Shown here: positions 7,601-24,255 of the stretch, piece after piece
How positions within the stretch are numbered: the first letter of the stretch is position 1
How the letters are laid out: each line of letters begins with the position of its first letter
Assembly (NCBI GenBank): GCA_017746715.1
Contig: JAGHZQ010000041.1
Span: forward strand, 9,219 to 41,218
Origin: Cyanobacteria bacterium SBLK
GTDB lineage: Bacteria > Cyanobacteriota > Cyanobacteriia > Cyanobacteriales > Spirulinaceae
DNA: 32,000 bases
Direction: 5' to 3'
Position numbers and translations under genes: made by a program
The notes under the pieces: generated by a model
The model's input: the letters and a program-made list of their open reading frames with translations, nothing else
Database searches by the model: none
Told to the model about the DNA's origin: nothing

Positions 7601-9958
7601 GAAGGCGAGGGCATATTGATTTTCCCAACAATCTGGGGGTAGGAGTTGAATGCCGATATCCAAATAGGCGATCGCGGTTGCGTAAGCGGCGGTGAGATTG
7701 GCTTTGCGTCCGGCTTGCCAATTGAGACGGGCGAGGGTTTGCCGCTCTTTGGTATCGACAATGAGGGCAATGCCGCGATTGAGGCGATCGACGATATCGA
7801 AGAGCTTTTCTTCTCGTTCTCCCTCGGTAACGCGCTCCAAGAGCAGGCGGCCGATTTGCAGGTTGACGGCGGGGCGTTCTTCTAGAGGAATGAGGGTATA
7901 GGCGGCCTGTTGAATGCGATCGTGGTTGAATTGATAGGCTTGGATGAGTAAATTTTCGTCGAGTTGGGAGCGAGGGGAAATAATGCCGCGATCGAGGGCA
8001 ATTTTTAAATCCCGAAAGAGGATTTTGCGGGGTTGAGAACTCACTAAAGTTAAAGTGCTCAGGTCAAACTCCGCCCCCAAACACGCTGCAAGGGATAAGA
8101 TGCGTTGGGTTGATGGGGGGAATTTTTGCAGTTTGCCCACCATCAATTCCACCACGCTATCGCTCAATTCTATGGCTTCGATCGCGGCAAGATCCCATTG
8201 CCAACATCGAGAAGGGCGATGGAACATTAAAAGATTTTCATCATACAATTCTTTTAAAAATTCATTGATAAAGAAAGGATTGCCTTCTGTTTTTCGCAGG
8301 ACTAATGTCGCTAGAGCTTTTACGGTTTTCGGTGGAGATTGCAGGGTTTCGCCAATTAACTGGGTAATTTCGTCAATTTTAAGATTACCGAGGAAGATAC
8401 GAGCCAATGCTTGCTCTTTTTGTTGCAGTCGTTCGAGGGTAATGAGGAGGGGATGCCCCGAGGATACCTCATTATCTCGATATGCCCCCAATAGTAAAAG
8501 ATATTGCGTTTGGCGATCTTCGAGCAATCGTTCTACTAATTTCAGCGTCGCCAAGTCCGACCATTGCAAATCGTCGAGGAAGAGGGTTAAGGGATGTTCC
8601 GAACTGCAAAAGGCGCGCATGAAGTTCCCAAAAACAAGATTAAAGCGATTTTGCGACTCGTTTGTCCCCAATGTGGGAACGGCCGGTTGTTTCCCGATAA
8701 TCAGTTCGACTTCGGGAATGACATCAATGACGATCTGACCGTTATTTCCCAACGCCCGTAACAGTTTTTCGCGCCATACTTGCAATTGGGATTCGGTTTC
8801 GCCTAACAGTTGTTCGATTAATCTGCGAAAGGCACTGACGATGGCGGAATAGGGAACATTGCGTTGAAATTGATCGAATTTCCCGGCAATAAAATAGCCT
8901 CGACGGACGGTAATGGGTTTGTATAGTTCTTGGACTAATGCCGATTTTCCAATGCCGGAATAACCGGAAACAAACATTGCCATCACCTGCCCCGTATTGG
9001 CAACTGTTTCAAAGCCGTCAATTAACTTGGCAATTTCTACTTCTCTACCGTAGAGTTTTTGGGGAATTTGAAAGCGATCGCTAATATCTTGACGGGCGAG
9101 GGGAAAAACAGCAATTTCTCCTGTCGATTTCAATTGCTGCTGACAGCGTTCTAAATCAGCTTTTAATCCATCAACGCTTTGATAGCGATCCTCGGCATTT
9201 TTCGCCATTAATTTGAGAACAATTTCTTGTAAGGTTGAGAAAATTTTGAATTTTGAATTTTGAATTTTGAATTGAGCGGGTGGTTTGGCAATGTGAGCGT
9301 GAACTAATTCCAAAACATCTTCAGTTGGGAAGGGTAAGTTTCCCGTCAGCAGCTCGTAAAAAGTCACGCCTAAAGAATAAAAATCCGTGCGATAGTCCAG
9401 ACCGCGATTCATTCTCCCTGTTTGTTCTGGGGAAATATAAGCTAATGTTCCTTCTAAAACATGAAGGTTCTTCAATGTGGGATTTTCTCGATTTAGCTGT
9501 GTGGCAATCCCAAAATCAATGATTTTCAGTTCTTTGGTTTCGGGATTCAAAATAATATTGGCGGGATTAATATCTTTATGAATAATCTTTTGGGCGTGAA
9601 TCTGTCCCAAACTTTCGGTTGTCGCGATCGCGATTTCCAAAAATTCTTCTAAGGTCAATTTTTTCCGTTTCTGCAACCATTGCTGAAGAGAAAGTCCGCC
9701 AAAATCTTCGAGGACAATTGCATAACTTCTCTGCCATTCTTCGAGACTGTAGGCTTTAATGATTCCGGGGGCATCTACGCGACAAGTAAGGTAATATTCT
9801 TGCTTGTAACGGCGAATTTGTTCTGAAGTCGGGTAATCGCAATCGAGAAATTTGAGAATGACGGAGGTGCGATCGCTAATTCTCCAAGCGCGGTACACTT
9901 GCGAACTAGTGCTATGGTGAATTTTCAGAAAATTCTCGTATCCGGCAAGAGCAATCAT
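4637..9958 (-). CDS. Giant signalling protein, paralog B: Ser/Thr kinase - AAA_16/STAND ATPase - helical/TPR - GAF - class III (IIIb-like) adenylate cyclase - short TPR-like tail
   Basis: 1773-aa ORF. Kinase motifs: [28 protein letters not shown]. ATPase motifs: LYGREVEI then Walker [12 protein letters not shown] and Walker [16 protein letters not shown]: [21 protein letters not shown]...SLENARLY. The cyclase maps to about nt 4830-5365, with metal-binding Asp in VLFSDIRDF and IGDAIMALF and Asn/Arg in GDSVNLSSRVE. The substrate Lys (IDKYIGD) is paired with Thr (GTAIGD), as in class IIIb adenylate cyclases such as Anabaena CyaB1 (recalled from memory). The C-terminal helical tail is GAILFHQQAFIEAAELFRQCLEYHQGD. 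Confidence 0.95.
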   Translation of the reverse strand: MIALAGYENFLKIHHSTSSQVYRAWRISDRTSVILKFLDCDYPTSEQIRRYKQEYYLTCRVDAPGIIKAYSLEEWQRSYAIVLEDFGGLSLQQWLQKRKKLTLEEFLEIAIATTESLGQIHAQKIIHKDINPANIILNPETKELKIIDFGIATQLNRENPTLKNLHVLEGTLAYISPEQTGRMNRGLDYRTDFYSLGVTFYELLTGNLPFPTEDVLELVHAHIAKPPAQFKIQNSKFKIFSTLQEIVLKLMAKNAEDRYQSVDGLKADLERCQQQLKSTGEIAVFPLARQDISDRFQIPQKLYGREVEIAKLIDGFETVANTGQVMAMFVSGYSGIGKSALVQELYKPITVRRGYFIAGKFDQFQRNVPYSAIVSAFRRLIEQLLGETESQLQVWREKLLRALGNNGQIVIDVIPEVELIIGKQPAVPTLGTNESQNRFNLVFGNFMRAFCSSEHPLTLFLDDLQWSDLATLKLVERLLEDRQTQYLLLLGAYRDNEVSSGHPLLITLERLQQKEQALARIFLGNLKIDEITQLIGETLQSPPKTVKALATLVLRKTEGNPFFINEFLKELYDENLLMFHRPSRCWQWDLAAIEAIELSDSVVELMVGKLQKFPPSTQRILSLAACLGAEFDLSTLTLVSSQPRKILFRDLKIALDRGIISPRSQLDENLLIQAYQFNHDRIQQAAYTLIPLEERPAVNLQIGRLLLERVTEGEREEKLFDIVDRLNRGIALIVDTKERQTLARLNWQAGRKANLTAAYATAIAYLDIGIQLLPPDCWENQYALAFGLHCEAVKASYFNADIQRMEELAAIAIPRAKTQSDRGDICEIKLDAYTNQNRVVEALAVGLEMLSSLGIEFPREVSRGDIAPALAKTKTLIGDRQPRDLLDLPPMEGDLSRVALPLLIKIVPVTYFAAPLLFPLIVFKQVELSVTYGNSPASAFGYAAYGMILCGVVGEFHLGCEYGQLALNILAASSDREFEAAVLMVVYRFISHWQIHLREALDPLQHGFAVGLETGDFAYSGYCNQGYCLRLFLTAMELSEAVREMQSYSELLEGIGQQTALNYNRPYWQAMLNFQGRARQSDRLTGTVMDEQKLIAYYQDRKNGSGLWGIYVTKLILTYWFDNHQGAIAAGEAAGECLSAAIGHALIPVWRFYDALARLAVVGMEEDTEALPVEIAEHQNDLQHWAELAPMNYQHKYYLVAAERARVAGDRALAIEYYDRAIAGARENEYLHEEALANELAARFYLDWDKMPIARIYAMEARYCCQRWGAIAKVRQLEEKYPQLFAANEREIPRSSPKTPHFLGTRTTRQDRNSDVLDLATVMKSTSAISSEIVLDKLLAALMDILVENAGAERGILLSLSANPPREETDDFSVAAIKEANSDTAIVSPARGGEVPTLKELSDIPHQVVYYVARTQKTVVLQDAEEDSQFAGDPYIQQYQCQSIACAPLINQGKLQGIIYLENNLISGAFTRDRLQLLQMLAAQAAISLENARLYENLQTLNLAYERFIPSQFLSFLEKKSIVDVDLGDQVEREMTVLFSDIRDFTTISEQMTPAENFAFINGYLGRMEPLIQQYGGFIDKYIGDAIMALFGNTPDDALQAAIAMLEELQVYNLSRIEADLVPLRIGIGLHAGRLMLGTVGGADRMDGTAIGDSVNLSSRVEGLTKTYGISLLITQQTFLGLKNFFEYDFRFIERVTAKGKAKAVSLFEIFSADSPDLREAKKASKGLFEKGAILFHQQAFIEAAELFRQCLEYHQGDRAARSYLERCQQYID
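9243..9270. repeat. Four perfect tandem copies of a heptanucleotide (ATTTTGA; TCAAAAT on the coding strand) inside paralog B
   Basis: The plus strand reads aa-attttga-attttga-attttga-attttga-attgagc. On the minus strand this encodes QFKIQNSKFKIF in the kinase C-lobe. Confidence 0.9.
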
Positions 9959-10043: not shown

Positions 10044-13000
10044 CTATTGTAACTCTTCAAGGAGTTGCCGAATGAGATCGAGTTGAAAGTCATCGACTAA
10101 GTTCGTCAGGCAATCGGCTAAAGATGCTTGACTTGCAGGGATTTCTCGAATGAGTGCCAAAATTGCCTCATCATCTAGGATTTCGCTGGCTTTATACATT
10201 CGTTTCTGCCATTCTAACGGCATCACTTGTAAATCGGACAATTGCAAAGGAGAATATTGCTTTTCTTCTTTTCGTTCTGCTTCATCATAAATATATTCAA
10301 TCCCTAAATACTTGCTGAGGATCTCAAAAATCTCCACTTCTCGAAAGGGTTTCTTGAGAAAATCATCGCATCCAGCTAACAAGGCGCTCGCCTTTTCTCG
10401 TTCCAATACGCTCGCCGTTAAGGCAATAATAATGGTGTCTTTTCCTTCTGGTTTGGCTTTAATGGTTCGCGTCGCCTCATAACCATCCATTTCGGACATT
10501 CTCATGTCCATAAAAATCAGATGCGGATGCCAGTTTTCCCATTGAGCGATCGCTTCTCGTCCGTTACTCGCTTCCCGCAAGTCGAAGCCGAGGGGTTGCA
10601 ACAATTTGACCAATAATAAACGATTTTCGGACCGATCGTCGGCGATGGCAATTTTGTAGTGTGGCTGTCCGGGTTTGAGAGCAATGACTCGGCGAGAATT
10701 GCGATCGGATTCTACCTCCGCTCTATCCACAAGCGTGGCATTAATATTAAAAGTCATGGCCGTTCCTTCACCAACCTGACTGCGAACGGCAATTTCTCCT
10801 CCCATCAATTGCACGAATTTTTGCGAGATTGGCAGCCCCAACCCCGTTCCTTCTTGAGTTTGTCGACCGCTCTGAGTTTGAGCAAAGGCCTCAAAGAGTT
10901 TCCCTATCTCTTCTTCGGCAATCCCCATTCCCGTATCTCGTACTTCAAATATGATTTGTTGTTGGCATTGCCCCGAGCTTGTCGAAGGGTTGTTTTTTTT
11001 CCCTCCCTTACGAAGGGGGGTTAGAGGGGATTGGCAATGGGTGACTGTTACTGAAATGCCGCCTTCTGATGTGAATTTAATACTATTGTTGATGAGATTC
11101 AGTAAGACCTGACGCAGTTTGGTTTTATCGGTGCAGATATATTGCGGGACGTTTTCTTGCCATGCGAACAGCAGTTTTAATCCTTTAGTTTCAGCTTTGA
11201 GCTGCAATAAACCTTCGACTTCTGTCAATAAAGCATAAAGATCGAAAGGAGCGATCGCGAGGGTCATTTTCCCTGCTTCGATTTTCGATAAATCTAAAAC
11301 ATTGTTGATTAACGTCAGCAAATAATCGCCGCTACGATTGATAATATTGAGATTATCTCGGTGTTTGGGCGGCAAATCGCCGTCGCGGATGGCAATTTGC
11401 GAAAAACCTAAAATCGCGTTTAAGGGGGTTCGCAATTCGTGGCTCATATTGGCTAAAAACTCGCTTTTGGCTTGGTTGGCGCGATCGGCAGTTTCTTTAG
11501 CTTGTTGCAGTTGAGCGGTGCGCTCTTCAACTTTGCTTTCGAGGGTGCGAGAATGCTCTTCGAGTTGGTTATAGAAACGTGCATTTTCGAGGGAAATGGC
11601 GGCTTGAGTGGCGAGGGTTTGCAATAATGCCATGCGTTCTTGACTAAATGCCCTCATGCTAAGATTGTTTTCTAGATAGATAATCCCTTGTAATTTTCCT
11701 TGATTAATAAAGGGAATACAGGCAAGAGAATAACATTGATTTTGTTGAATATAAGCATCCTCGGTAAAGTTGCCCGTACGGACGGCATCATCTAAAAACA
11801 CGGCTTCTCGGGTGCGAGTGACATAGCGAACAATACTGAGTGGAATGGCGTGAAATTTTTCTAGAGGAATGTCTTGCAGGGCGATCGCTTTTTCCGATTC
11901 TGTTTCTTGGGTTGCTGCAACCACTAAATTTTCTCCTCTCGACAGAAGTAAAATTCCTTTCTGCGCTCCGGCGTTTTCGACAAGAATATTCATTAAAGCC
12001 GAGAGTAAGCGATCGAGAAAAATTTCGCTAGAAATGGCTTGAGTGGCTTTGATAACTGAAGCTAGATCCAGATTTTTGCTGCTTTTTGAGGTACTGGTCG
12101 TTGGCGTTATTTTCGCCTTTTTTGGTGAGGTTGAATCTGGTGTTTCTGTAAAAGAAAATAGATGGGAATATTTTTCTTCGAGATGTTTGACCTTGGCGAT
12201 CGCGCCCCAGCGTTGATAGCAATAATGAGCTTCTTTTAAATACAAACCGGCAATGTTTTCTTTCCCGTTCGGTCGAGCACAGTCGAGACTCCAATTAAGA
12301 TAAAATTTAGCAGCAATTTCGTTAGCGAGGGCTTCTTCTTGGATGTATTTGTTTTCTCTGGCTCCGGCGATCGCGCGATCGTAATAATCCATTGCTTTGA
12401 CTTTTTCCCCCAAGACTCGATAATATTCTGCCTCGACAAGATAGAATTTATGTAAATAGTTCATGGGAGCGGATTCTGCCCAACGCTTTAGCTTCTTTTG
12501 ATTTTCTCGAACCTCATTTAAAGTATTCCGATCTATTGTTTCAGGACGCATTAATTTGATTAAAGAATAATAGCAATAAAATAGAGGAAATGACGGACTT
12601 TTCATAGGATTAAGTAAAATCCCTTCTCTCTCGATCGCTATCACGAGGGATTCGTTAAAATCTTCAAATAAATAACACAGAATTGCTTTTTGAAAATAGA
12701 TATTGTGCAACACGGTATTATTGTTATTATTTTGACACTCTAAAATCAATGAATCTTCATCCATTGCCAAACCTGTGAGATGATAGGGGGATGCCGATTT
12801 TCCTTGTAAATTTAAAACTGTTTGCCAATATATTTGTATAAGATCTAGAGAAACTTTTTGGCCGACTTCCTTAAATATTTTACAGTATCGTTCGATTTCT
12901 CGTTCCACTTCAGATAATTCGCAACCGCTTAAATAAAGCTGAATGCAATAACTACTACCAAGATGGCCGCTATAAGCTAAATCCCCGATTTCTAAACCAA

Positions 13001-16000
13001 ATGTAAAACCTTGCTGTAATGAATTAAATGCCTCGTTGATGTGATTTTTCCAATGATGGATAAAATAATAAACGAGCAAGAAAATGGAAGGTTTAAATTT
13101 TCGATCGTCAAACTGGGCAAGAATATCTAAGGCCAATTGGCCGTATTCATAACCGAGAGAAAAATCGTTCCCGATCTCACATAAAATCATGCCATAGTTT
13201 GCGTAGCTAAAGGCAGAAGCAGGTGTATTGCCATAAATGATTGAAAGTTCGAGGGTTTTGAAAACCGCAAGGGGATACAAAGCAGGTTTGGTAAAATAAA
13301 TCGCCGGTGCAATCTTCACTAAAAGCACTAATGCCTCGCGTATCAGATCGTTTTGCATTTTAGGTAAATTGGCAAAGTCGGTCGGTTGACGATCGCCAAT
13401 TAATCCTTGTATTTCGCCGAAAGCGTTGACAAAATCCTCTTGAGAGGGTTGGGATGGAAACTCAATTCCCAAATTTTGTAAAGCCTGCAAAGCCACATCG
13501 AGGGCTTCTAGCAATCGCACTTGATTGGTATAAGCATCAACTCTAATTTGTGCCAATTTGAGGCGATCGCGAGGCGTTTTTGCTTCTCGATCGATAATCG
13601 TTGCAAATGCTTCCATGCGTTCGATCTCTGCATTGAGATAAGTGGCTTTCATCACTTCTTGATATAGCTCGAGGGTTAGTTCGTATTGAGCGTCCCAACG
13701 ATTCGCCTCGAGTAGAGAGATGCCCGTCTCAAAATAGGAGATCGCTGCTCCGTAAGCATTGGCTGCTCTCGCTTTGCATCCTGTCTGTAGATTTAAGCGA
13801 GTGATAGTTTCTCGCTCTTGAGAAGTCGTGAATAAGGTAAGGCCGCGATTGAGGAGATCGACAATATCAAAGAGTTTTTCTTCGCGATCGCCCTCTGGAA
13901 TCTTTTCTAAAAGAATGCGCCCGATCGCCACATTTTTCTCGGCTTTATCTGCTTCGGGAATGAGGGCATAGGCCGCTTGTTGAATGCGATCGTGGGCAAA
14001 TTTACACGACTGAATCAGTAAGTTTTCATCTAATTCCGATATGGGAACGATAACGTTGCGATCGAGAGCCATTTTTAACGACTCAAACACTTCTTGCGGC
14101 GATCGCTTGACAATCCATGTCAGGGTTGTTAAATCGAACTCGGATCCCAAACAAGCAGCAAGGGATAAGATTTCGCGATCGCCTTGCGGTAATTGTTGTA
14201 GCTTTTCGACCATCAACTCAACCACGTTATCCGTGAAATTTCTGGCAGCGATCGCTTCAATATCCCATTGCCATCTCCTCGCTTTAGTTTCAAAGTTTAG
14301 TAAGTTTTCGGCATACAAAGCCTGTAAAAACTCATTTACAAAGAAAGGATTACCTTCAGTTTTCTCTTGCAATAATTGCGTCAATTTTCTCACTTCATTG
14401 AAGGTTCGTCCGAGAGTATCGCTTATCAAGTTGCCAATCTCAGAAAGCTGCAAAGGATTGAGGCGAACTTGCACGAATGTTGCTTGATGCTGTCGGAGTT
14501 TTTCGAGAGAAAGGTGCAAAGGATGACTGCGCGATATTTCGTTATCTCGATAGGCTCCCAACAGCAATAACGATTCAGTTTGAGCATCCGTTAATAATCT
14601 TTCCATTAGTATTAAAGTTGCCGAGTCTACCCATTGCAGATCGTCGAGAAATAAGGTTAAGGGATGTTCTTTTTGACAAAATACGCGCATAAAATTGCCA
14701 ATTGTCAAATTAAAGCGATTCCGTGCTTCATTTGCTCCTAACTCGGGTAGGGGAGGTTGTTTGCCAATAATCAGTTCGACTTCGGGGATGACATTAATAA
14801 TGACTTGCCCATTATTACCTAATGCTTCCAGTAATTTGTTTTTCCAGACTTGCAATTGTACTTCGCTTTCTCCCAATAATTGCTCGATTAAACCTCGAAA
14901 CGCCGCTACGATCGCAAAATAGGGAATATTGCGTTGAAATTGGTCGAATTTTCCCGAAATGAAATAGCCTCGATGTGCTGTAATGGGTTTGTATAATTCT
15001 TGGACGAGGGAAGATTTACCAATTCCCGAATATCCCGCGACTAAGATGAGTTCTACTTTTCCCGTATCGGCAACTCTCTGAAAAGCGGTTAATAGAGTTT
15101 CGATTTCTTTTTTTCGTCCATAGAGTTTCTGCGGAATTTGCAAGCGATCGCTAATATCTTGACTGGCTAAGGAAAATGAAAGAATGTCTCCAGTTGAGTT
15201 TAATTGCTGCCAACAATATTCTAGGTCGGCTTTTAATCCCCAAGCACTTTGATAGCGATCTTCTGCATTTTTTGCTATCAATTTCATGACAATGTTAGTC
15301 AGAGGGGTGGGGACTTGAGAGTCGGGAATGGGAGGGGAGGGTTTGGCAATATGACAGTGAATCAATTCCAGCATATCTTCAGTCAGAAAAGGGAACATTC
15401 CCGTCAGCAGTTCGTAAAAAGTAATGCCTAAAGAATAAAAATCCGTACGATAATCCAAGCCTCGATTCATTCTTCCGGTTTGTTCTGGGGAAATATAAGC
15501 GAGGGTTCCTTCTAAAACATTAGGATTTTTCAAGGTAGGATTTTCTCGGTTGAGTTGGGTCGAAATTCCAAAATCAATAATTTTCAGTTCTTTAGTTTCG
15601 GGATTAAAAACTATATTGGCAGGATTGATATCTTTATGAATAATATTTTGGGCGTGCACTTGTCCCAAACTTTCAGTAATGGCGATCGCTAATTGCAAAA
15701 ACTCTTTGAGAGAGAGTTTGTCGCGTTGTTTCTGCCATTTTTTGAGGGAAATGCCGCCAAAGTCTTCAAGGACGATCGCGTAGCTTCTCTGCCATTCTTC
15801 GAGACTGTAGGCTTTAATAATCCCCGGAGCATTTAACTGGCAAGTGAGATAATACTCTTGCTTATAGCGGCGAATCTGCTCTGACGAAGGATAATCGCAA
15901 TTGAGAAATTTGAGAATGACGGGGGTGCGATCGCTCGTTCGCTTGGCGCGATAGACTTGCGAGTTACTGCTGTTGTGGATTTGCTGGAGCTCCTCGTAAC

Positions 16001-16016
16001 CTGTCAGAGAAACCAT
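10044..16016 (-). CDS. Giant signalling protein, paralog C (HstK-like): Ser/Thr kinase - AAA_16/STAND ATPase - helical/TPR - GAF - HisKA - HATPase_c - receiver - helical C-terminal tail
   Basis: 1990-aa ORF whose first roughly 1400 aa are collinear with paralogs A and B ([61 protein letters not shown]). After the GAF come a coiled coil and the H-box [12 protein letters not shown] (His codon about 11439-11441). These are followed by N-box [10 protein letters not shown]1 DTGMGI and G2 GTGLGLPIS. The receiver reads IADDRSENR...[11 protein letters not shown] (Asp codon about 10506-10508)...KKPF. Confidence 0.95.
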
Positions 16017-16940: not shown

Positions 16941-17306
16941 CTATTTTGCAGGGGTATTGAAGGCTTTTAATTGATGGATGCGATTGGCTTGTTCTTGTAT
17001 TCTGTCGGCAAGGCGATCGCAAACCCATTCGCAGAGATCGAATATTATCGGATCGCTGATGTCATAATAGACGCTCGTGCCGACGGGTTTGCGGTTTAAA
17101 ATGCCTGCTTGTGTTAAAATTTTGAGGTGTTTGGAGAGATTGGCTTGTCCCAGTCCGGTTTCTTCGGAAAGCTGCGTCACGTTCATTTCTCCCTGCCTCA
17201 AAGCGTTTAAAATTTGCAGGCGACTAACTTCTGAGAGCATTTTAAAATAATCGGCGACGGGGGCAAGGGCAGCCGCAGATTTTTTATGGTTTAGCGTTTT
17301 ATCCAC
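16941..17306 (-). CDS. ArsR/SmtB-family winged-helix transcriptional regulator without obvious metal-ligand motifs
   Basis: 121-aa ORF with the typical ArsR HTH core FKMLSEVSRLQILNALRQGEMNVTQLSEETGLGQANLSKHLKILTQAGILNRKPVGTSVYY. It has no CxC in helix 3 and no His/Asp-rich alpha-5 site. Confidence 0.85.
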   Translation of the reverse strand: MDKTLNHKKSAAALAPVADYFKMLSEVSRLQILNALRQGEMNVTQLSEETGLGQANLSKHLKILTQAGILNRKPVGTSVYYDISDPIIFDLCEWVCDRLADRIQEQANRIHQLKAFNTPAK

Positions 17307-17515
17307 TGTTCGGATTATTTGTATCTATTTAACTAAGTAATAATATAGCATTATATTGAATGAAAAGCTAGTTTTAGAAGCGCGATCGCATTTTTTATTC
17401 TCAATGTTAAGCTCCCGATATAAAAAGAAAACTCGGCGACTCATTTATCCCCGAATTATCGGCAATTCTCGGTGGATCTTGTTTAAACTGAGGGAGAAGT
17501 TTGAGAAAAAAACCG

Positions 17516-17968
17516 ATGGATCCAATCACTGCGATCGCGACTCTTGCTGCGACAAAATTTGTTGAAACGGGTGCCGAAAAACTGGCAGGGGGAACTTTAG
17601 AGATAATCAACCGACTGCGAGAGAAGATTTGGCAGAAGTTGCGGGGAAAACAGGAGTTGGAGAAAGTCTTACAGGAGGCGAAAGATGGGGCTCCTTTTGC
17701 TTTGGAGCAAGTTGCGGGTTATTTGGATGCGGCAATGAAGGAGGATAGGGTTTTTGCGGAGGAAGTGAGAGAGGAGATTGAGGAAGCAATGAAAGAGAAT
17801 GAGACTTTTGCGAGGGAGATCGGCGATCGCGCTCGAGAGATTTTTAATATTGACACGGTTGAGGGACAAAATCAGATTATTGGCGATCGTGGGATTCAAA
17901 ATCCAACGAGATCGGTAATTGTTGAGAATAATCCCGGCACTATTATCATTAACGAAAAACCCGATTGA
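17516..17968 (+). CDS. Helical N-terminal domain ORF ending in an N/Q/G/I-rich strand motif; probably the detached 5' part of the downstream NB-ARC/TPR gene
   Basis: The track ORF 17501..17968 starts at a TTG. An ATG at 17516 lies behind a purine-rich GAGGGAGAAG. The protein reads MDPITAIATLAATKFVETGAEKLAGG..., then charged helices, then VEGQNQIIGDRGIQNPTRSVIVENNPGTIIINEKPD. It ends at TGA 17966-17968 and is in the same frame as 18104..20245. Confidence 0.6.
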   Translation: MDPITAIATLAATKFVETGAEKLAGGTLEIINRLREKIWQKLRGKQELEKVLQEAKDGAPFALEQVAGYLDAAMKEDRVFAEEVREEIEEAMKENETFAREIGDRAREIFNIDTVEGQNQIIGDRGIQNPTRSVIVENNPGTIIINEKPD

Positions 17969-18103
17969 CTGAACTCGTCGGCATCGAAACCGATTCAACA
18001 ACATTCGCACATTCCCAATAATATCAGGCGCACTCCCTCGAACAAGTTTTTTGGTCGGGATAAAGATTTAGAGAAGATTCACGAGAAATTAAAGCAGGGT
18101 GAT

Positions 18104-20245
18104 GTGGCGATCGCTGCTTTTTATACGACGATAAGCGGTATGGGAGGCATTGGCAAAACCGAGTTAGCGTTGCAATATGCGACTCGCAAACAGGCCGATT
18201 ATCCCGGTGGGGTTTGTTGGGTGGATGTGGGAGGGGGAGATATGGGGATTAAGATTTGTAGTTTTGCGCGAGAGGGTTTAAAAATGCGGGTACCGGAGGA
18301 GGGAGAGTTAAGCGATCGCGTTGGTTATTGCTGGCAAAATTGGGGCAGGGAGGGGGATGTTTTGCTGGTTTTGGATGATGTGGTGGCGTATGATGCGATC
18401 GCGCCTTATTTGCCTCCCGTGGGGTCTCGGTTTAAGGTTTTGGTGACGACGCGATCGCAAGATTTAGACCCAAAACGATTTAAAGAGGTGGGGTTATTGG
18501 TATTGGATGAGGCTACATCTCTCGAGGTGCTGCGATCATTTTTACAGGATAGGGAAGGAGGACGAATTGATGACGATTTAGAGGCAGCAAAGGGATTGTG
18601 TCAATGGTTGGGTTATCTGCCTTTAGGGTTGGAATTGGTGGGACAATATCTGCGAACCCATCAAGATTTATCGTTGCAGGAAATGCACGCACGCTTGGAG
18701 AAACAACGCTTAGAAGAAGGCGCGTTAAAAGATAAGATTACAGCCGTTTTTGAGTTGAGTTGGCAGGAGTTGGATGAGGATGAGCAAGAATTAGCCTGTT
18801 TGTTGGGTTTATTTGCCCCTGCTCCCATTCCTTGGGAGTTCGTTGAAGGGTGTTTTCCCGACCGAGATAAGGTACAGTTAGAAACAATTCGCGATGAAAT
18901 ATTGTGCGGGTTGAGTTTATTGGAACGGGAAGGGAAAGGGGTTTATAAACTGCATCAGTTAACGCGGGAGTTTTTGCAGTATAAATTAAAGCGATCGCCT
19001 TGGTGCGATCGACCCAAACAGGGATTTTGGCAGCGTTTGCGAGCAAGATTTAAAACACCTTGTTCTAAGAGCGATGAATTAAAACGAAAATGCGTTCGAG
19101 TTATGGTAGAAGTTGCAAAAGATATGCCAGAAACACCGACATTAGAACACATAGAACAATTTTCTATCTTAATTCTGCATTGGGAAGAAGTTATCGCAAA
19201 TCTGTGCAACTGGATCGAGAATGAGGATTTGATTTTGCCATTTTTAGGATTGGGTGGTTATTACAAGGGACAAGGACTCTATAAAAAAGCTGAATCTTGG
19301 CAAAAGCAAAGTTTATCGATATGTCGCGATCGCTTAGGAGAAGACCATCCCGATGTTGCCAGTTCTCTCAATAATTTGGCAGGACTCTACTCATCCCAAG
19401 GGAGATATGAAGAAGCAGAACCCCTCTATTCTCAAGCCTTAGCGCTGAGGAGAAAACGCTTAGGAGAAGACCATCCCCATGTTGCCAGTTCTCTCAATAA
19501 TTTGGCATCTCTCTACTCATCCCAAGGGAGATATGAAGAAGCAGAACCTCTCTTTTCTCAAGCCTTAGCTCTGAGGAGAAAACGCTTAGGAGAAGACCAT
19601 CCCCATGTTGCCAGTTCTCTCAATAATTTGGCATCTCTCTACCAATCCCAAGGGAGATATGAAGAAGCAGAACCTCTCTATTCTCAAGCCTTAGCTCTGA
19701 GTAGAAAACTCTTAGGAGAAGACCATCCCGATGTTGCCACTTCTCTCAATAATTTGGCATCTCTCTACACATCCCAAGGGAGATATGAAGAAGCAGAACC
19801 TCTCTTTTCTCAAGCCTTAGACCTGAGTAGAAAACGCTTAGGAGAAGACCATCCCCATGTTGCCAGTTCTCTCAATAATTTGGCATCTCTCTACCAATCC
19901 CAAGGGAGATATGAAGAAGCAGAACCTCTCTTTTCTCAAGCCTTAGACCTGAGTAGAAAACTCTTAGGAGAAGACCATCCCGATGTTGCCAGTTCTCTCA
20001 ATAATTTGGCAGAACTCTACTCATCCCAAGGGAGATATGAAGAAGCAGAATCTCTCTTTTCTCAGGCTATTTTAATCATTGTCAATCGCTTGGGTTTTGA
20101 ACATCCAAATAGTAAAACTCTCATCCAAAATTTTGGTTATTGCTTACAAAAAGCGATCGCAGTCGGACAAAGAGACAAACTCGGCAATCATCCCATCACC
20201 CAAGATATCCTCGCACAGATCGACGCAGCCAGCAAAGGAGAATAA
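18104..20245 (+). CDS. NB-ARC (STAND) NTPase with C-terminal kinesin-light-chain-type TPR repeats; the 5' boundary is unreliable
   Basis: P-loop GMGGIGKTELA, Walker B LLVLDDV, KVLVTTR, and a GLPLA-like motif YLPLGLELVG. These are followed by repeated LGEDHPxVAxSLNNLAxLYxSQGRYEEAEPL units. The track start is a GTG just before the P-loop, but the frame is open upstream to 17969. That upstream stretch encodes the conserved pre-P-loop motif FFGRDKDLEKIHEKL, so the real gene begins further 5'. Confidence 0.85.
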   Translation: MAIAAFYTTISGMGGIGKTELALQYATRKQADYPGGVCWVDVGGGDMGIKICSFAREGLKMRVPEEGELSDRVGYCWQNWGREGDVLLVLDDVVAYDAIAPYLPPVGSRFKVLVTTRSQDLDPKRFKEVGLLVLDEATSLEVLRSFLQDREGGRIDDDLEAAKGLCQWLGYLPLGLELVGQYLRTHQDLSLQEMHARLEKQRLEEGALKDKITAVFELSWQELDEDEQELACLLGLFAPAPIPWEFVEGCFPDRDKVQLETIRDEILCGLSLLEREGKGVYKLHQLTREFLQYKLKRSPWCDRPKQGFWQRLRARFKTPCSKSDELKRKCVRVMVEVAKDMPETPTLEHIEQFSILILHWEEVIANLCNWIENEDLILPFLGLGGYYKGQGLYKKAESWQKQSLSICRDRLGEDHPDVASSLNNLAGLYSSQGRYEEAEPLYSQALALRRKRLGEDHPHVASSLNNLASLYSSQGRYEEAEPLFSQALALRRKRLGEDHPHVASSLNNLASLYQSQGRYEEAEPLYSQALALSRKLLGEDHPDVATSLNNLASLYTSQGRYEEAEPLFSQALDLSRKRLGEDHPHVASSLNNLASLYQSQGRYEEAEPLFSQALDLSRKLLGEDHPDVASSLNNLAELYSSQGRYEEAESLFSQAILIIVNRLGFEHPNSKTLIQNFGYCLQKAIAVGQRDKLGNHPITQDILAQIDAASKGE
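19331..20086 (+). repeat. Six tandem, near-identical 126-bp (42-codon) TPR-coding units
   Basis: Unit starts at 19331, 19457, 19583, 19709, 19835 and 19961, each beginning cgc/ctc-tta-gga-gaa-gac-cat-ccc. A degenerate unit starts at 20087 and another precedes 19331. Differences between units are confined to a few codons. Confidence 0.9.
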
Positions 20246-20365
20246 GAAGAAATAGAAGTGCAAATCTAGAACAAAAAACTGTTATGATAGAACTGCAAAC
20301 AACAAGAGAAGAGAGAAAGATGGTCGGCGCGATCGCTTTTTGTGTTAAAATTCAAAAGGGAATTA

Positions 20366-20397
20366 TTGTTGGGTTTCGATCCTCAACTCAACCTACA
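20366..20397. repeat. Short dispersed cyanobacterial hairpin repeat (TTGGGTTTCG..CCTCAACnCAACCTAC type)
   Basis: The sequence tgttgggtttcgatcctcaactcaacctac forms a stem GTTGGGTT/AACTCAAC with one G-T pair. I recall this element family as common in cyanobacterial spacers. It lies in the convergent spacer between the NB-ARC and CHAT genes. Confidence 0.4.
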
Positions 20398-20454
20398 CGA
20401 CTTAGGCTTTTCCTGCAAAATTCTTCTTCCCCCGCTCCCTCCGCTCCCTCCGCT

Positions 20455-23400
20455 TTAATAAGGATTGCCAATGAGAGTAAAACCACTCCAATAATAAGGA
20501 TGGGATAAAATCCGATCCCTCGGTACGCTCAATTCATCAGGCAACGCGATCGCTTCTTTCCCCGTTTGTAACGTTCTCTTTTCTAAATAAGTTTCTCCGC
20601 GTAACAAGGATAATTGTGCCCGTCGGATGGCTTCCGCTTTTACGGGAGTCTGTTTTAATTGTTCGTAAAAACTCGTCATTAATGCCAGCGTTCCCACATC
20701 GCTCACATACCACAAACTCCCCAACGCAGACTTAACCCCCGCCGCCACGGCCAGCCCGGCAAACCCCAATTCAGCATCTTTATCCCCCAAAGCCGTCCGA
20801 CAGGCACTCAACACCAATAACTCTACAGGAGGATCGCGAAATTGCAGGGTTTGCAAGCGATCGAGAGGCAAGCGATCGTCCCAAAGTTGAATGTAAGAAT
20901 TGCCCGGTTTTCCTGGTCGGAATTCCCCGTGAGTCGCCAGATGCACGATCGCGTAAGGAGCATTCGCTCGCGTATTTTTGAGGTTTTCGAAGGTAAACGC
21001 CTCATTAAGGAAAGATTTTCCCGGCCAAAGACGGCCTGCGATCGTTTCTAATTCCGTCGGGACTGCCGGGAGGGGTTCGAGATCGGCAAACTGCGATCGC
21101 CCCATGGCTAAAACCGATAAATTTGCGAGCGGAGTATATTCGATTTGAGTGAGGGTAAAACTGGGGAGCAGTCCGACGCTATAGCGTTCGATGAGAAACT
21201 GCTTGCCGTCGTGAAGGGCAGCCAAAGGCAGCGATCGCAATCCTTCATCGGCGATAAAAGCTAAATTCTCAATTCCTCGGGCTTCTAATTCTGCCTCCAA
21301 CGGGGCAATTAACCAACGATAGAGTTGTCCTGCCGATTTCAGATAGGCAGAAGGACGGCGAACGTTTGTTACGGTACGGCGAAACTCCAAAGCAACCTCT
21401 CTCACTATCTCCCGCGTTGCCCCCTCGATACGCCATCGCTTCGGTTTCCCATCAGCAGAAATGAGGAGTAATTCCAACACATCGCTATCTTGGGGGGCAA
21501 AAGCAATCGGCGGTGCATTTAAGGTCGTTCCGGGGGCGAGTAAAGCTCGAAAGGCTTGACTCGTTTGCGCCTCGCGACTGGTAAAATCAGAACGCCCTGC
21601 CAGCGATCGCGGTAAAAAACTGGCATAGACGATCGCCGATTTTACCCCCGTCAGGGCTTCAATATCGGCTAACTTGGCCTTTGCTTCTGCGAGGGAAGCG
21701 AGTTCGAGGGTCTTCGAATTGCCGCGATCGCCGGAACGATTGAGAGAGAGGGCGGATAGAGGACGAATTTGGGAAGAAGATAGAGAATCGGACGTTTGTG
21801 TTAAAATCGAAATCCCCTCCGAACTAAAATCCGCATCAAAAGCACGATTGGGGGAAAGGCTCAAATCTCCCCCATCAATTGCTCCCAACGTTCCATTGGT
21901 GACAGAATCCCCCACGGTAAAAATCCCCCCACCGTGGCGAATAATAATCGAACCATTCCCCGTAATCCCCGCAGCGATCAGACTGGCTCCTGTTTCGGAA
22001 CGGGTGGCGACACTCCCCAAACTCTGGATAGAACCATCCTGAAAGCGAATAAAGCTATCATCCCCGGTCGTATCTATAAATATCGATGCTAATGCCCGAA
22101 ACGTTCCCGATGCCGTAATATCGATATTTCCCCCCGCACCGCCGGCAATACTGGAACTGGAGATCGCCCCCAAGCTAATATCTTCCCCCCTCAACGTCAC
22201 CGAGTTGCCATTTCCCCCCGTAGAGAACGCAAAAATTCCTTGCGCGATCGCAATATCCCCCCCCGCAGAAAGCAAAACTTCGCCAGCATTTCCAGAACCC
22301 GCAACGGCACTAAAAACCGACATGCCGACATCGATCGCCCCACCCGCATTCAGAAAGATATTCCCCCCCGTTCCCCTTCCTCCAATATTCGAGCGATCGA
22401 TCGCTCCCGAAATCAGGCTATCCCCTATCTCGATATTTCCCGTAGCAGATAGGGTAATATCGCCACCGGTGCCATTCCCCGTTCCGGGATCGACTCCCGA
22501 AGTCACTCCAGCGATCTCGATATTGCCATGGGTGGCAGAAATCGAGACAGTTCCCCCATCTGCTGCTTCCGATCCCGTGAGAATCTCCCCCGCAGTAACA
22601 TTTCCATTAGTGGCGGAAATCGTCACGGAACCGCCGGGGTTTCCTACAACACCCGAAACAGTTTGTATTGCTCCTGTCGTGACGTTTGCTCCCGATATTT
22701 CCAGCGATCGCCCGGAAGTAAAAATAGTATCCCCCCCATCCATGGAAAACGCCCCCGAGCCATCTCCATCGGTATCGGCACGAAAAGCGATCGCCCCCGT
22801 CCCTGCAAATGCTAAAATTCCATCGCTTAAGGACTCGATGATAATATTGTTACTCGCTTCGAGAATGACATCGGCGTTCGCTCCCAGCAGTTCGAGATTA
22901 TCTTCGTAAAGAATAAAAGGCGAACCCGCTTCGGATTGGAAAACATCGGGTAGGGTTACCGTATTTGTTCCCGTTCCCAATCCCCCGCGAATGAGAATAT
23001 CTTCGGGATCGAGGAGTAGGGTTCCCTTTTCGCCGCGATCGCTCCTTAAATCCGCCTCTCCCTCATAAATTAAGCTGGACTTGCCAGAAACTTCCACAAA
23101 TCCCCCATCTCCTCCCGCTTCTCCTCCTCGGGCTCTCGCTTTTCCAGCAAAAGCCGTCAATTCATCCGACCAAATAATAATATTTCCCCCTTCTCCCCGT
23201 CCTAAAGCATCGGCACGAATGCTCGTGTTTTCGTCAATAAAAGTTCTTCTGGCACGCGGAAAATTGCCTTCTCCTCGGCGATCGCCGCCAATTCTTACAT
23301 TTCCTCCCCCACCCGATCCCGAAACATCGATATCGGCATCGAGAAGGGCAACGCGATCGCCAAAAATGTTAATTTCTGGGGGGGCAACTTCTCCAAGTTC

Positions 23401-24255
23401 GAAAGCGTTAAGTTCTGAAGAAGATACGGAAACCGTTCCGGAAATTTGGGTCGTTCCAGGGGCAATAGGTTCTGCTGATTCTCCTGTCAGTAAAGCGGGA
23501 AGATCGAGAGGACTCAGGGGTAAAATTGTTCCTTTTGCATCTCGAGGGGGTTCGATTTCTAAACTTAATAAACCTCCCGGTTGAGACAGTCGAATTAAAT
23601 GGGTTTCGGGAATGGAAGCTACAAGAATATTCCCCCCTGGGGCAATTAATTCTCCTGTAGAAACAATGCTTCCTCCCAATAACATTAAACGCTGTCCTTC
23701 TGGAACCTCTAAGCGTCCGGCATTGGCGATCTCGGCGGTTGTTTTGCGATCGAAAGCAAAGAGCAAAGGCGTTCCCGTCAAGTTGGCATAATTGTTATTT
23801 CCCAATGCCTCAAACCAGCGATCGCCGCCAAACCCGATCGCTGTTGCCGTCGTAGCAAAAAAATCTCCCGATACATTTAAACGAGCATTTTCCCCAAAGA
23901 GAATCCCCGCAGGATTCATTAAATATAAATTCGCTTCGCCACCGTTAATTTGGAGCATCCCATCAAACACAGAGGGACTTCCCCCTACCACGCGAGCAAG
24001 AATATTCTCAATATTGGCATCGACCCAAAAATTGCCGATTTCTCCCGTATTGAGTCCCAATTCTGAAAAACTGTGAAATAAATTTTCACCGCCGATCGTG
24101 CCGCCGGAAATCTGATAAGTATTGTCATCAAAAATAACAATAGTTCCCGTTCCATCATGAGCGGGAATGATGGATTGAGAGAAGACGGGCAGTGCGGTTA
24201 TCGCAACAGAACCCAGTCCCAAACAACCCCAATACCAAACTTTTTGCCACATCAT
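20455..24255 (-). CDS. Secreted TpsA-like exoprotein: signal peptide - filamentous-haemagglutinin-type TPS secretion domain - Gly-rich beta-helix repeats - C-terminal CHAT (caspase-like) protease domain
   Basis: 1266-aa ORF with an N-terminal signal (WYWGCLGLGSVAITALPVFSQ). TPS motifs: NLFHSFSELGL and LMNPAGILFG. A long G/S/T/I-rich repeat region follows. The CHAT domain starts near QLYRWLIAPLEAEL, with His in VHLATHGEF (about nt 20920-20946) and Cys in LVLSACRTALG (Cys codon about 20800-20802). Confidence 0.9.
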   Translation of the reverse strand: MMWQKVWYWGCLGLGSVAITALPVFSQSIIPAHDGTGTIVIFDDNTYQISGGTIGGENLFHSFSELGLNTGEIGNFWVDANIENILARVVGGSPSVFDGMLQINGGEANLYLMNPAGILFGENARLNVSGDFFATTATAIGFGGDRWFEALGNNNYANLTGTPLLFAFDRKTTAEIANAGRLEVPEGQRLMLLGGSIVSTGELIAPGGNILVASIPETHLIRLSQPGGLLSLEIEPPRDAKGTILPLSPLDLPALLTGESAEPIAPGTTQISGTVSVSSSELNAFELGEVAPPEINIFGDRVALLDADIDVSGSGGGGNVRIGGDRRGEGNFPRARRTFIDENTSIRADALGRGEGGNIIIWSDELTAFAGKARARGGEAGGDGGFVEVSGKSSLIYEGEADLRSDRGEKGTLLLDPEDILIRGGLGTGTNTVTLPDVFQSEAGSPFILYEDNLELLGANADVILEASNNIIIESLSDGILAFAGTGAIAFRADTDGDGSGAFSMDGGDTIFTSGRSLEISGANVTTGAIQTVSGVVGNPGGSVTISATNGNVTAGEILTGSEAADGGTVSISATHGNIEIAGVTSGVDPGTGNGTGGDITLSATGNIEIGDSLISGAIDRSNIGGRGTGGNIFLNAGGAIDVGMSVFSAVAGSGNAGEVLLSAGGDIAIAQGIFAFSTGGNGNSVTLRGEDISLGAISSSSIAGGAGGNIDITASGTFRALASIFIDTTGDDSFIRFQDGSIQSLGSVATRSETGASLIAAGITGNGSIIIRHGGGIFTVGDSVTNGTLGAIDGGDLSLSPNRAFDADFSSEGISILTQTSDSLSSSQIRPLSALSLNRSGDRGNSKTLELASLAEAKAKLADIEALTGVKSAIVYASFLPRSLAGRSDFTSREAQTSQAFRALLAPGTTLNAPPIAFAPQDSDVLELLLISADGKPKRWRIEGATREIVREVALEFRRTVTNVRRPSAYLKSAGQLYRWLIAPLEAELEARGIENLAFIADEGLRSLPLAALHDGKQFLIERYSVGLLPSFTLTQIEYTPLANLSVLAMGRSQFADLEPLPAVPTELETIAGRLWPGKSFLNEAFTFENLKNTRANAPYAIVHLATHGEFRPGKPGNSYIQLWDDRLPLDRLQTLQFRDPPVELLVLSACRTALGDKDAELGFAGLAVAAGVKSALGSLWYVSDVGTLALMTSFYEQLKQTPVKAEAIRRAQLSLLRGETYLEKRTLQTGKEAIALPDELSVPRDRILSHPYYWSGFTLIGNPY

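Follow-up and report, generated by a model that had tools for sequence, protein, structure and literature searches.

A conserved in-frame UGA and a covarying pseudoknot between Bell-type effectors and STAND sensors: a candidate for programmed stop-codon readthrough in filamentous cyanobacteria

Filamentous cyanobacteria carry two-gene clusters in which a helical protein of about 140 aa with a G/N/Q/V/I-rich tail is encoded upstream of, and collinear with, an NB-ARC and TPR gene of the NLR class (Dyrka et al. 2020, bioRxiv 10.1101/2020.01.06.895854). The Bell domain of the small protein is recognised by an N-terminal 'MEPIS' motif and by its association with NLRs and with amyloid-signalling (BASS) motifs (Dyrka et al. 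2020; preprint 10.1101/2024.11.07.622273). A locus of the same layout lies in a 32,000-nt stretch of contig JAGHZQ010000041.1 of Cyanobacteria bacterium SBLK, the whole of which is called the window here. In the described Bell/BASS-NLR clusters a paired motif is the defining feature, whereas the NLR of the window has neither an N-terminal copy of the motif nor a start codon, and instead follows the effector in one frame behind a conserved UGA and a pseudoknot.

We propose, with a probability of roughly 0.6, that this locus is a Bell/BASS-type effector-NLR module for cell death or immunity, written in one frame and expressed by programmed stop-codon readthrough. Most ribosomes would stop at the UGA (positions 17966-17968) and release a 150-aa protein composed of a Bell-type helical domain for membrane targeting and an amyloid-signalling-like tail. 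With the UGA in the A site, the pseudoknot 8 nt downstream would sit at the ribosomal mRNA entrance, and together with the weak UGA-C it would allow a minority of ribosomes to decode the stop with a near-cognate tRNA, probably that for Trp. The resulting fusion of about 909 aa, ordered Bell, motif, linker, NB-ARC and TPR, would be the sensor, and readthrough would be the sole route for this NLR to gain an N-terminal signalling motif. Oligomerisation of the fusion upon ligand binding could cluster the motifs and nucleate an amyloid fold, which would recruit the excess of free effector and lead to membrane damage. We infer the readthrough, the inserted amino acid, the product ratio, the amyloid templating and the membrane attack from a conserved stop and frame, the lack of start codons, selection ahead of any start, a covarying pseudoknot and complementary loci whose NLRs bear the motif. 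An original prediction made from the letters of the window had left three options for the split gene, namely a freshly inactivated gene, a base-call error, or a free effector accompanied by a read-through fusion. The third is the best supported by the conserved stop, the pseudoknot and the complementary loci, and the decisive features that go beyond that prediction are the pseudoknot 8 nt past the stop and the existence of loci whose NLR has its own start and motif.

The in-frame stop codon and the structure behind it

Translation of 17399-20245 in the frame of the open reading frames (ORFs) meets a single stop, the TGA at 17966-17968, which lies between a small ORF and an NB-ARC/TPR ORF that ends at 20245 on the same (+) strand; the claim that the two share a frame with one TGA between them is therefore correct. 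The small ORF starts at the ATG at 17516, with a TTG at 17501 as an alternative, and by the ORF list and its translation it encodes the proposed 150-aa termination product (17516-17968, + strand), annotated as the hypothetical protein MBP0018019.1. The proposed readthrough product, deduced from the continuity of the frame across the single stop, would span 17516-20245 (+ strand) and read Bell - motif - X - linker - NB-ARC - TPR over about 909 aa. As also predicted, the 45 codons after the TGA (17969-18103, + strand; LNSSASKPIQQHSHIPNNIRRTPSNKFFGRDKDLEKIHEKLKQGD in translation) hold no stop and no ATG, GTG or TTG. They encode a linker and the N-terminal helix of the NB-ARC domain (FFGRDKDLEKIHEKL), and the first canonical start after the TGA is the GTG at 18104, ahead of the beta-strand and P-loop. 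TGA, TAA and TAG each terminate other ORFs within the window, and since TGA serves there as an ordinary stop it is not reassigned in this genome.

The same stop is found in other assemblies and other organisms. A 3574-nt contig of the Logan assembly of run SRR14108923 is identical to the window along its full length, TGA included; it is an independent assembly, possibly of the same reads as the metagenome-assembled genome (MAG), and so not proven to be independent sequencing. The closest orthologue, from a Spirulina sp. at 56% amino-acid identity, has the same GAT TGA junction (...GEKRD TGA GTG AAG TCG TCG...) and a conserved post-stop peptide (VKSSGSEPIKQHPH in Spirulina, LNSSASKPIQQHSH in the window). 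A profile search with the small protein recovered 60 cyanobacterial genome loci, and the stop with in-frame continuation is present in 30 of them (31 counting L007, the Spirulina contig of L001/L002), across more than 15 genera. These include Spirulina, Fischerella, Rivularia, Scytonema, Plectonema, Spirirestis, Hassallia and Brasilonema, as well as Iphinoe, Calothrix, Dapis, Caldora, Symploca, Coleofasciculus, Mastigocoleus and others. Their shared layout is a Bell-type ORF of about 140 aa, the stop, an 8-nt spacer, the pseudoknot and an in-frame STAND NTPase ORF with no further stop, and with the metagenome sequences described below it is known from about 90 cyanobacterial loci (31 genome and 60 metagenome).

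The proposed readthrough site is the TGA followed by C (UGA-C; 17966-17968, + strand), as seen in the translation and in an alignment of 33 sequences, the window and 32 loci. Aligning related loci had been suggested as a check on whether this codon is sense elsewhere, and it proves to be a stop in 32 of the 33: TGA in 30, TAG in one (L008), TAA in one (L061), with the sense codon GAG in L068 only. The base after the stop is C in all but the Spirulina orthologue, which has G. The next codon is usually CTA or CTG (CTG in the window), with GTG in L002/L007 and CCG in L017/L029. UGA is the leakiest of the stops and UGA-C the weakest termination signal in E. coli, so that what is conserved at this position is, to judge by its sequence, a leaky stop in a favourable 3' context.

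Behind the stop, an 8-nt spacer (CTGAACTC, 17969-17976, + strand), constant in length across the loci of alignment A2, leads into a compact H-type RNA pseudoknot (17977-18007, + strand) that is marked by covariation and a depressed synonymous rate. From the window sequence and A2, its first stem, S1, consists of 5 bp between 17977-17981 (GUCGG) and 17990-17994 (CCGAU), its second stem, S2, of 4 bp between 17985-17988 (CGAA) and 18004-18007 (UUCG), and its A-rich third loop, L3, of the 9 nt at 17995-18003, all on the + strand. Across loci the 3' part of the S1 loop, usually GGGA or CGGA, finds its partner nine nt past S1 in UCCC or UCCG. Placed 8 nt beyond the stop, the structure has the geometry known from the gag-pol readthrough signal of murine leukaemia virus and from -1 frameshift stimulators.

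The structural case rests on covariation because the single-sequence folding energy is not significant: S1 is in the minimum free energy fold of the window element, with an energy no better than that of shuffles (z = -0.33). In A2 (29 loci), 85.9% of cells are paired, against 17-47% when the partners are slid by 1-3 columns, and there are 27 double-sided changes, a number that none of 500 shuffles reaches. Pairs are exchanged in S1 (C-G 13/U-A 10 and C-G 13/G-C 7) as well as in S2 (G-C 15/C-G 7). The encoded linker tells the same story: Ser or Pro at position 4 covaries with Thr, Ile or Ala, Val, Gly, respectively, at position 9, and as the members of each set share only their first codon base, this makes sense only as U-A and C-G pairing.

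Similar results came from an independent test set of 54 distinct metagenome sequences, found with a search pattern that left three S1 pairs and the whole 3' arm of S2 free. The free S1 positions are 96-100% paired (C-G 27/U-A 24; C-G 37/U-G 8/G-C 5/U-A 4), the 3' arm of S2 is 92% paired at the predicted offset and at most 69% elsewhere, and C-G replaces G-C in five of the seven sequences whose 5' base is C. A covariance model of the element gives one match in each stop-containing locus and none in 24 loci whose NLR is separately started; it also matches L026, L029, L035 and L067, which lie outside the training loci. An Rfam scan of 17300-18400 returned no family. That compensatory changes keep the pairing intact argues for a folded RNA over mere sequence homology.

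Substitution patterns separate this RNA from the coding sequence around it. By Nei-Gojobori counts over locus pairs, the ratio of non-synonymous to synonymous differences (pN/pS) is 0.29 in the Bell domain (pS 0.63), 0.38 in the C-terminal tail (pS 0.63) and 0.37 in NB-ARC (pS 0.62), and it rises to 1.06 in the first 14 post-stop codons, where pS falls to 0.26. The high ratio arises because synonymous change is suppressed, which points to constraint at the RNA level, and this constraint is confined to those 14 codons. From codon 15 to the P-loop pN/pS is 0.44 (pS 0.58), and from codon 15 to the first canonical start only (18 loci) it is 0.49 (pS 0.64). A conserved NFVGR..EL..LH.KL motif lies upstream of every possible start; together with the purifying selection ahead of the starts it argues for protein-coding constraint where no canonical initiation reaches. 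The first canonical start is 25-54 codons past the stop in most loci and at codon 15 or 18 in two, and in L009, L026 and L054 no canonical start comes before the Met codon within the GMGG P-loop. Readthrough is favoured over frameshifting because there is no slippery site and the downstream ORF is in the zero frame.

The element is also found beyond the Bell family. Scanning metagenomes with a pattern of 20.5 bases for the element gave 60 contigs. In every one of them the TGA closes an upstream ORF, L(Q/E/K)S(S/P)..ER.K.NP.. is encoded in frame behind it, and a STAND NTPase comes next where the sequence suffices. The upstream modules include alpha/beta-hydrolases and proteins of the Bell type, whose tails are of at least four kinds (BASS9-like GYQT.., BASS5-like KLAEKIGLVIQGG.., KIVNFAQRDIN.. 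and FIQNIEKAINAAQTQTIDQR..); the downstream modules include NB-ARC-TPR, NACHT with C-terminal transmembrane regions, protein kinase, transmembrane segments with TPR, and unknown domains. For example, L078, L093, L105, L110 and L118 have it between alpha/beta-hydrolase effectors of about 220-320 aa and NACHT NTPases, and because the same TGA and pseudoknot follow these hydrolases the cassette is not restricted to Bell proteins. The NACHT NTPase of L119 ends in a long glycine/leucine-rich, apparently multi-pass transmembrane region and not in TPR or WD repeats; in L125 the downstream ORF scores as NACHT and runs off the contig end, with no transmembrane region in its visible part. We lean slightly towards a general reading of these loci, in which a portable recoding cassette of filamentous cyanobacteria, consisting of UGA-C, the 8-nt spacer and a 5 + 4-bp pseudoknot that encodes L(Q/E/K)S(S/P)..ER.K.NP, programs readthrough in cellular genes and so links effector modules to STAND sensors. 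One mRNA would then yield abundant free effector and a small, fixed fraction of effector-sensor fusion, and this would replace the duplicated amyloid motif of canonical two-gene systems.

Signalling motifs, effector and sensor

The complementary loci bear directly on the role of the motif. In the window, no second copy is present at the NLR N-terminus, where just 45 codons (the linker and the FFGR helix) precede the NB-ARC core. In all 24 element-free loci, the NLR is started by an ATG and bears a second copy of the effector motif (for example, effector MTQINQDNAKGWQTKVEGGTVYQGEINIHH with NLR N-terminus MNQSNQDKAKGWQNKVEGGTVYQGDIRIYN). The ATG lies 11-75 nt past the effector stop, usually in a different frame, and after the motif these NLRs continue with ..SPPNNIPYRGVANFVGR, which corresponds to the sequence past the pseudoknot in stop-containing loci (..NPPNNIPYRGVANFVGR). 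The element-free class is, on its sequence features, the published Bell/BASS-NLR architecture. The NLRs of this clade thus appear to come in two forms, with their own start and their own motif, or with neither and in frame behind a stop and pseudoknot. Orthologues with a bona fide start for the NTPase, which the original prediction had named as grounds for regarding the two ORFs as separate genes, do exist, but only in loci that lack the pseudoknot and have the second motif copy. In the Nostoc two-gene loci L033-L055, ATT GAG CCA ... and then a further stop (..IEPS) come behind the effector stop, a stretch that resembles the start of the cassette (CTG GAG TCG) and hints that one architecture arose from the other.

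The motif-bearing part of the window effector is its C-terminal tail (DTVEGQNQIIGDRGIQNPTRSVIVENNPGTIIINEKPD, 17846-17965, + strand), which is disordered in the AlphaFold2 (AF2) model (predicted local distance difference test, pLDDT, <50) and has the pN/pS of 0.38 given above. This tail (VEGQNQIIGDRGIQNPTRSVIVENNPGTIIIN) resembles BASS motifs in its length of about 20-40 aa, its enrichment in G/N/Q/V/I and its lack of structure in the monomer, and it aligns with the IQGQNVQNVYGGEA...APVIQGGSGHNITFN tails of related loci. The consensus tail of the family is the published BASS9 motif: MTQNN.DNAKGWQTKVEGGTAYI is listed as BASS9 on the Bell side and is paired with LIQINEGNAKGFQTLVTGGIANI on the NLR side (Table S2, Dyrka et al., bioRxiv 10.1101/2020.01.06.895854). 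By string match, the motif of the window tail falls outside the published BASS1-10 pairs, while other family members carry BASS9; the related tail type (..APVIQGGSGHNITFN) is likewise absent from their Table S2 (0 occurrences) by string matching, as distinct from the authors' hidden Markov models.

The rest of the small protein is an all-helical domain of the Bell type (aa 1-110; 17516-17845, + strand) that opens with a hydrophobic helix (MDPITAIATLAA), as indicated by the AF2 model, the family consensus and homology. The model is helical to about residue 110 at a pLDDT of 61-87, with an overall pLDDT of 65.8 and a predicted template modelling score (pTM) of 0.56. The small ORF is an exact match to P0001, the MAG protein MBP0018019.1, and belongs to a family of 753 homologues, nearly all of 134-152 aa and cyanobacterial, whose consensus begins MEP..LTA.AIATLAFTKF and continues with several helices and a G/N/Q-rich tail. 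A 'MEPIS'-type N-terminus, that is, a hydrophobic helix with an acidic residue at position 2-3, is present in the window protein (MDPITAIATLAATKF), and its 150 aa with helices to about residue 110 agree with the size of Bell proteins, which are about 120-150 aa long and have some 100 aa in their helical domain. It matches P0003 at E 4e-10, and P0003 and many other family members carry the Bell-side BASS9 string DNAKGWQTKVEGGTAYI; this is an indirect link to recognised Bell proteins, for which Pfam has no model. In length, N-terminal helix, NLR and BASS association and occurrence in filamentous cyanobacteria, the small protein thus matches the Bell type as judged from sequence, and it is predicted to attack membranes.

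Other searches with the small protein gave little. Pfam and NCBIfam searches of the N-domain returned no significant family, Foldseek of the AF2 model, which is of moderate confidence, gave no match in the PDB (best E 8.6), and a sequence-profile search of the PDB gave only a spurious designed repeat protein. A look-up of clusters for accessions that would connect family members to the Bell proteins of Dyrka et al. gave no accession match, and the link from family to Bell therefore rests on motif identity. Of the domain order first predicted for the joined product, the NB-ARC and TPR parts stand by Pfam and the head is assigned by Bell/BASS9 family membership, while the suggested HeLo/MLKL-like fold, in which four helices would cup helix 1, was not demonstrated by Foldseek against the PDB. 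Among other relatives, P0012 has a Bell domain and BASS9-like tail fused, with no stop, to CHAT, TRADD-like_N and TIR, P0030 is likewise fused to TIR, and P0077 resembles P0012 by eye (not domain-scanned).

On the sensor side, FFGR is encoded at 18047-18058 and the P-loop GMGGIGKT at 18137-18160, so that the FxGR motif does lie within the startless stretch ahead of the P-loop, as had been noted from the sequence. The NB-ARC domain (18059-18754, + strand) corresponds to residues 31-262 of the post-stop product (Pfam PF00931, E 3.8e-16) and is followed by a TPR_12/TPR_10 sensor array (19328-20080, + strand; Pfam, TPR_12 E 2e-125). The array is a 126-nt tandem repeat of 5.8 copies with 94% identity and no indels (19331-20064; Tandem Repeats Finder), and the near identity of the copies suggests that the sensor repeats were recently homogenised or expanded. 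Downstream ORFs of related loci reach 938 aa, with 909 aa in L011.

Uninterrupted relatives indicate that the fused architecture is viable. P0024 (957 aa) and P0036 (967 aa) are Bell-motif-NB-ARC-TPR proteins with no stop, and P0020 (L068:3001-4182) has GAG (Glu) at the stop position, the same linker, and then a transmembrane segment and a GUN4 domain; the pseudoknot can still be drawn in L068, with a 10-nt third loop. A further candidate, P0041, with Trp at the stop position, was rejected: its DNA (L067, contig k141_901044) has TGA, and the gene caller apparently used genetic code 4. The entry is a spurious fusion, and database fusions of the family need to be checked against the DNA.

The surroundings of the locus contain other signalling genes. 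Two adjacent giant paralogues of 1773 and 1990 aa (4637-9958 and 10044-16016, both on the - strand) each combine a Ser/Thr kinase, an AAA_16 STAND-like NTPase and GAF, and end in a guanylate/adenylate cyclase domain in one and in HisKA-HATPase_c-receiver in the other. A 1266-aa protein encoded at 20455-24255 (- strand), convergently with the NLR gene, has a two-partner-secretion (TPS) domain at its N-terminus and a CHAT protease domain at its C-terminus; CHAT is another effector domain associated with cell death. The HIP1 octamer GCGATCGC occurs 83 times in the 32-kb window, against about 0.5 copies expected by chance, with several copies within the studied locus. A scan of 17250-20500 for promoters and terminators gave matches that are not above chance and no convincing internal terminator.

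Alternative explanations

Several points weigh against programmed readthrough. The argument is drawn from comparative genomics only, and as the loci are homologous, their counts are not independent events. The pseudoknot of the window is itself weak, with a closing G-U in S1, two A-U pairs in S2 and the nested-fold z of -0.33. The element is kept in L068, the sole variant with a sense codon, and may therefore have another role, unless that mutation is recent. Some of the hydrolase effectors have no amyloid-like tail, so the rationale of a shared motif does not apply to them; at those loci the stop may set a low dose of a dangerous fusion. A few loci are decayed (L013, L021, L035, L060), and the downstream ORF is short or broken in L013, L021 and L060. 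Moreover, literature searches, with subscription-only papers outside, returned no pseudoknot-stimulated readthrough in bacterial cellular genes, and we know of none. As to individual decayed loci, L035 (3960-4500) has a frameshift within the Bell ORF and yet keeps the cassette and a NACHT-like ORF, while in L021 (4400-4450) just TGA CTA GAG TCG is left before another stop.

Termination followed by reinitiation is an unlikely alternative, in which the pseudoknot would hold the ribosome for a restart at a non-canonical codon (CUG in the window, GUG in Spirulina) and two proteins would be made, the NLR having no motif. The codon past the stop is indeed GTG in L002/L007 and CTG in the window, but in most loci it is CTA, two mismatches from AUG, in L017/L029 it is CCG, and there is no conserved Shine-Dalgarno sequence or start. 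Tight coupling or overlap is usual for Bell and NLR genes (Dyrka et al., bioRxiv 10.1101/2020.01.06.895854) and would suit reinitiation; reinitiation needs no shared frame, however, and every locus is in frame. Structures just past stop codons are known to influence reinitiation, although the published ones are described as insulating against it (PMC7518266). Reinitiation would also leave the NLR without the motif that every ATG-started sister NLR carries.

There is a small probability that the junction is instead a boundary between modules at the DNA or RNA level, such as a stretch of homology at which recombination shuffles effector and sensor cassettes, or a site of mRNA processing or stability, with the NLR made from an internal start such as GTG 18104. 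This would account for the same cassette of about 45 nt joining varied effectors to NB-ARC-TPR, NACHT-transmembrane, kinase and transmembrane-TPR modules, for nucleotide conservation beyond what the protein needs, and for the persistence of the element beside a sense codon in L068. The compensatory changes, however, argue for a folded RNA, and neither recombination nor processing explains the preference for TGA-C and the fixed 8-nt spacing. Nor would an internal start fit with the codons ahead of every such start, on which purifying selection acts and in which the conserved FVGR helix is encoded, or with L009, L026 and L054, in which the first start is within the P-loop.

Independent translation of the NLR from its first canonical start, GTG 18104, with a shortened NTPase and a structure that merely insulates the two cistrons, is given still less weight. 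Gene callers annotate the locus in this way, the GTG is placed ahead of the beta-strand and P-loop, and a promoter-like match lies at 17922-17949, but such matches in the scanned region are not above chance. The position of the first start varies between codons 15 and 54, with none before the P-loop in L009, L026 and L054, and the codons that would be skipped are conserved as protein.

Decoding of the UGA as selenocysteine or another specific residue, with the downstream hairpin acting like a selenocysteine insertion sequence (SECIS), is scarcely credible. A UGA closely trailed by a conserved hairpin is the layout of bacterial SECIS elements; the same element, however, follows TAG in L008 and TAA in L061, and the sense homologue L068 has Glu and not Cys. 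The site is a low-complexity linker and not a redox motif, the loop of the hairpin takes part in the pairing of the pseudoknot, and a tRNA scan of the window found no tRNA gene.

Recent inactivation of the gene or a mistake in sequencing or assembly, for which a single in-frame stop in an otherwise intact, fusion-like ORF would be the expected sign, has next to no probability left: the base-call error is excluded by the identical second assembly and by a stop conserved across genera, and inactivation by the conservation of stop, frame and downstream coding sequence across many genera, with a stop at the same codon in about 90 loci, synonymous sites near saturation and both halves under purifying selection. 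Programmed readthrough is preferred because each of these alternatives leaves at least one thing unexplained among the in-frame continuity, the missing starts, the selection ahead of them, the TGA-C context, the TAG, TAA and GAG variants and the all-or-none occurrence of the NLR motif.

Comparison with known signalling and recoding systems

The Bell/BASS-NLR family is known, whereas no earlier description seems to exist of the stop-plus-pseudoknot cassette or of two products arranged in one frame. Stop codons or readthrough are not mentioned by Dyrka et al. (bioRxiv 10.1101/2020.01.06.895854), and searches of the literature on readthrough, pseudoknots or stop codons in connection with cyanobacteria, NLRs, NB-ARC or amyloid signalling (subscription-only papers outside) gave no description of the cassette. 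If the proposed mechanism is true, these loci would represent a third way of coupling sensor to executioner, alongside fusions of the all-in-one kind and gene pairs that share an amyloid motif, and the ribosome would determine how much sensor is made per effector. Annotation would also be affected, as pipelines call an arbitrary internal start for such NLRs or switch to genetic code 4 (as for P0041). Similarly, screens for amyloid signalling that look for motif pairs would miss this class, because the motif occurs only once.

Compared with all-in-one NLRs that have an N-terminal Bell- or HeLo-like domain, the predicted readthrough product has the same architecture, but here the fusion would be the minor product and the effector would also be released alone. 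Bab/Agp of E. coli, reported to act in abortive-infection antiphage defence, offers another parallel, as it has a Bell-related effector with a MEPIS-type helix and a C-terminal amyloid motif that is activated by a sensor bearing the same motif (preprint 10.1101/2024.11.07.622273). It differs from the window in consisting of two genes with paired motifs and no recoding, and its sensor is TPR-GreA/B-C-PIN and not NB-ARC. The conserved mRNA structures that lie directly past operon stops and shape ribosome termination (PMC7518266) are comparable in position; they are described as simple and stable, and as limiting reinitiation where the next cistron starts by itself, whereas the window has a covarying pseudoknot at a fixed spacing and a downstream ORF with no start.

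Pseudoknot-stimulated stop-codon readthrough is so far known mainly from eukaryotic viruses. If true, the present case would provide a compact, covarying readthrough signal of this kind from bacterial cellular genes and, as far as literature searches show, the first pseudoknot-dependent programmed readthrough in bacterial chromosomal genes. In phage Q-beta A1 and alphavirus nsP3/nsP4, a leaky UGA gives a minor, C-terminally extended protein that is needed beside the major product, and alphavirus opal readthrough has a C after the UGA, as in the window; both cases are viral, and Q-beta has no known downstream pseudoknot. Murine leukaemia virus gag-pol (PMC5009743) also has an in-frame stop, an 8-nt spacer and an H-type pseudoknot, and makes its short and extended products in a set ratio, as is proposed here; it belongs to a eukaryotic virus and uses UAG-G, and the locus of the window is a bacterial chromosomal gene with UGA-C. 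With its 5 + 4 bp and A-rich 9-nt loop, the pseudoknot of the window is much smaller than the viral one and in size nearer to the frameshift pseudoknots of luteoviruses.

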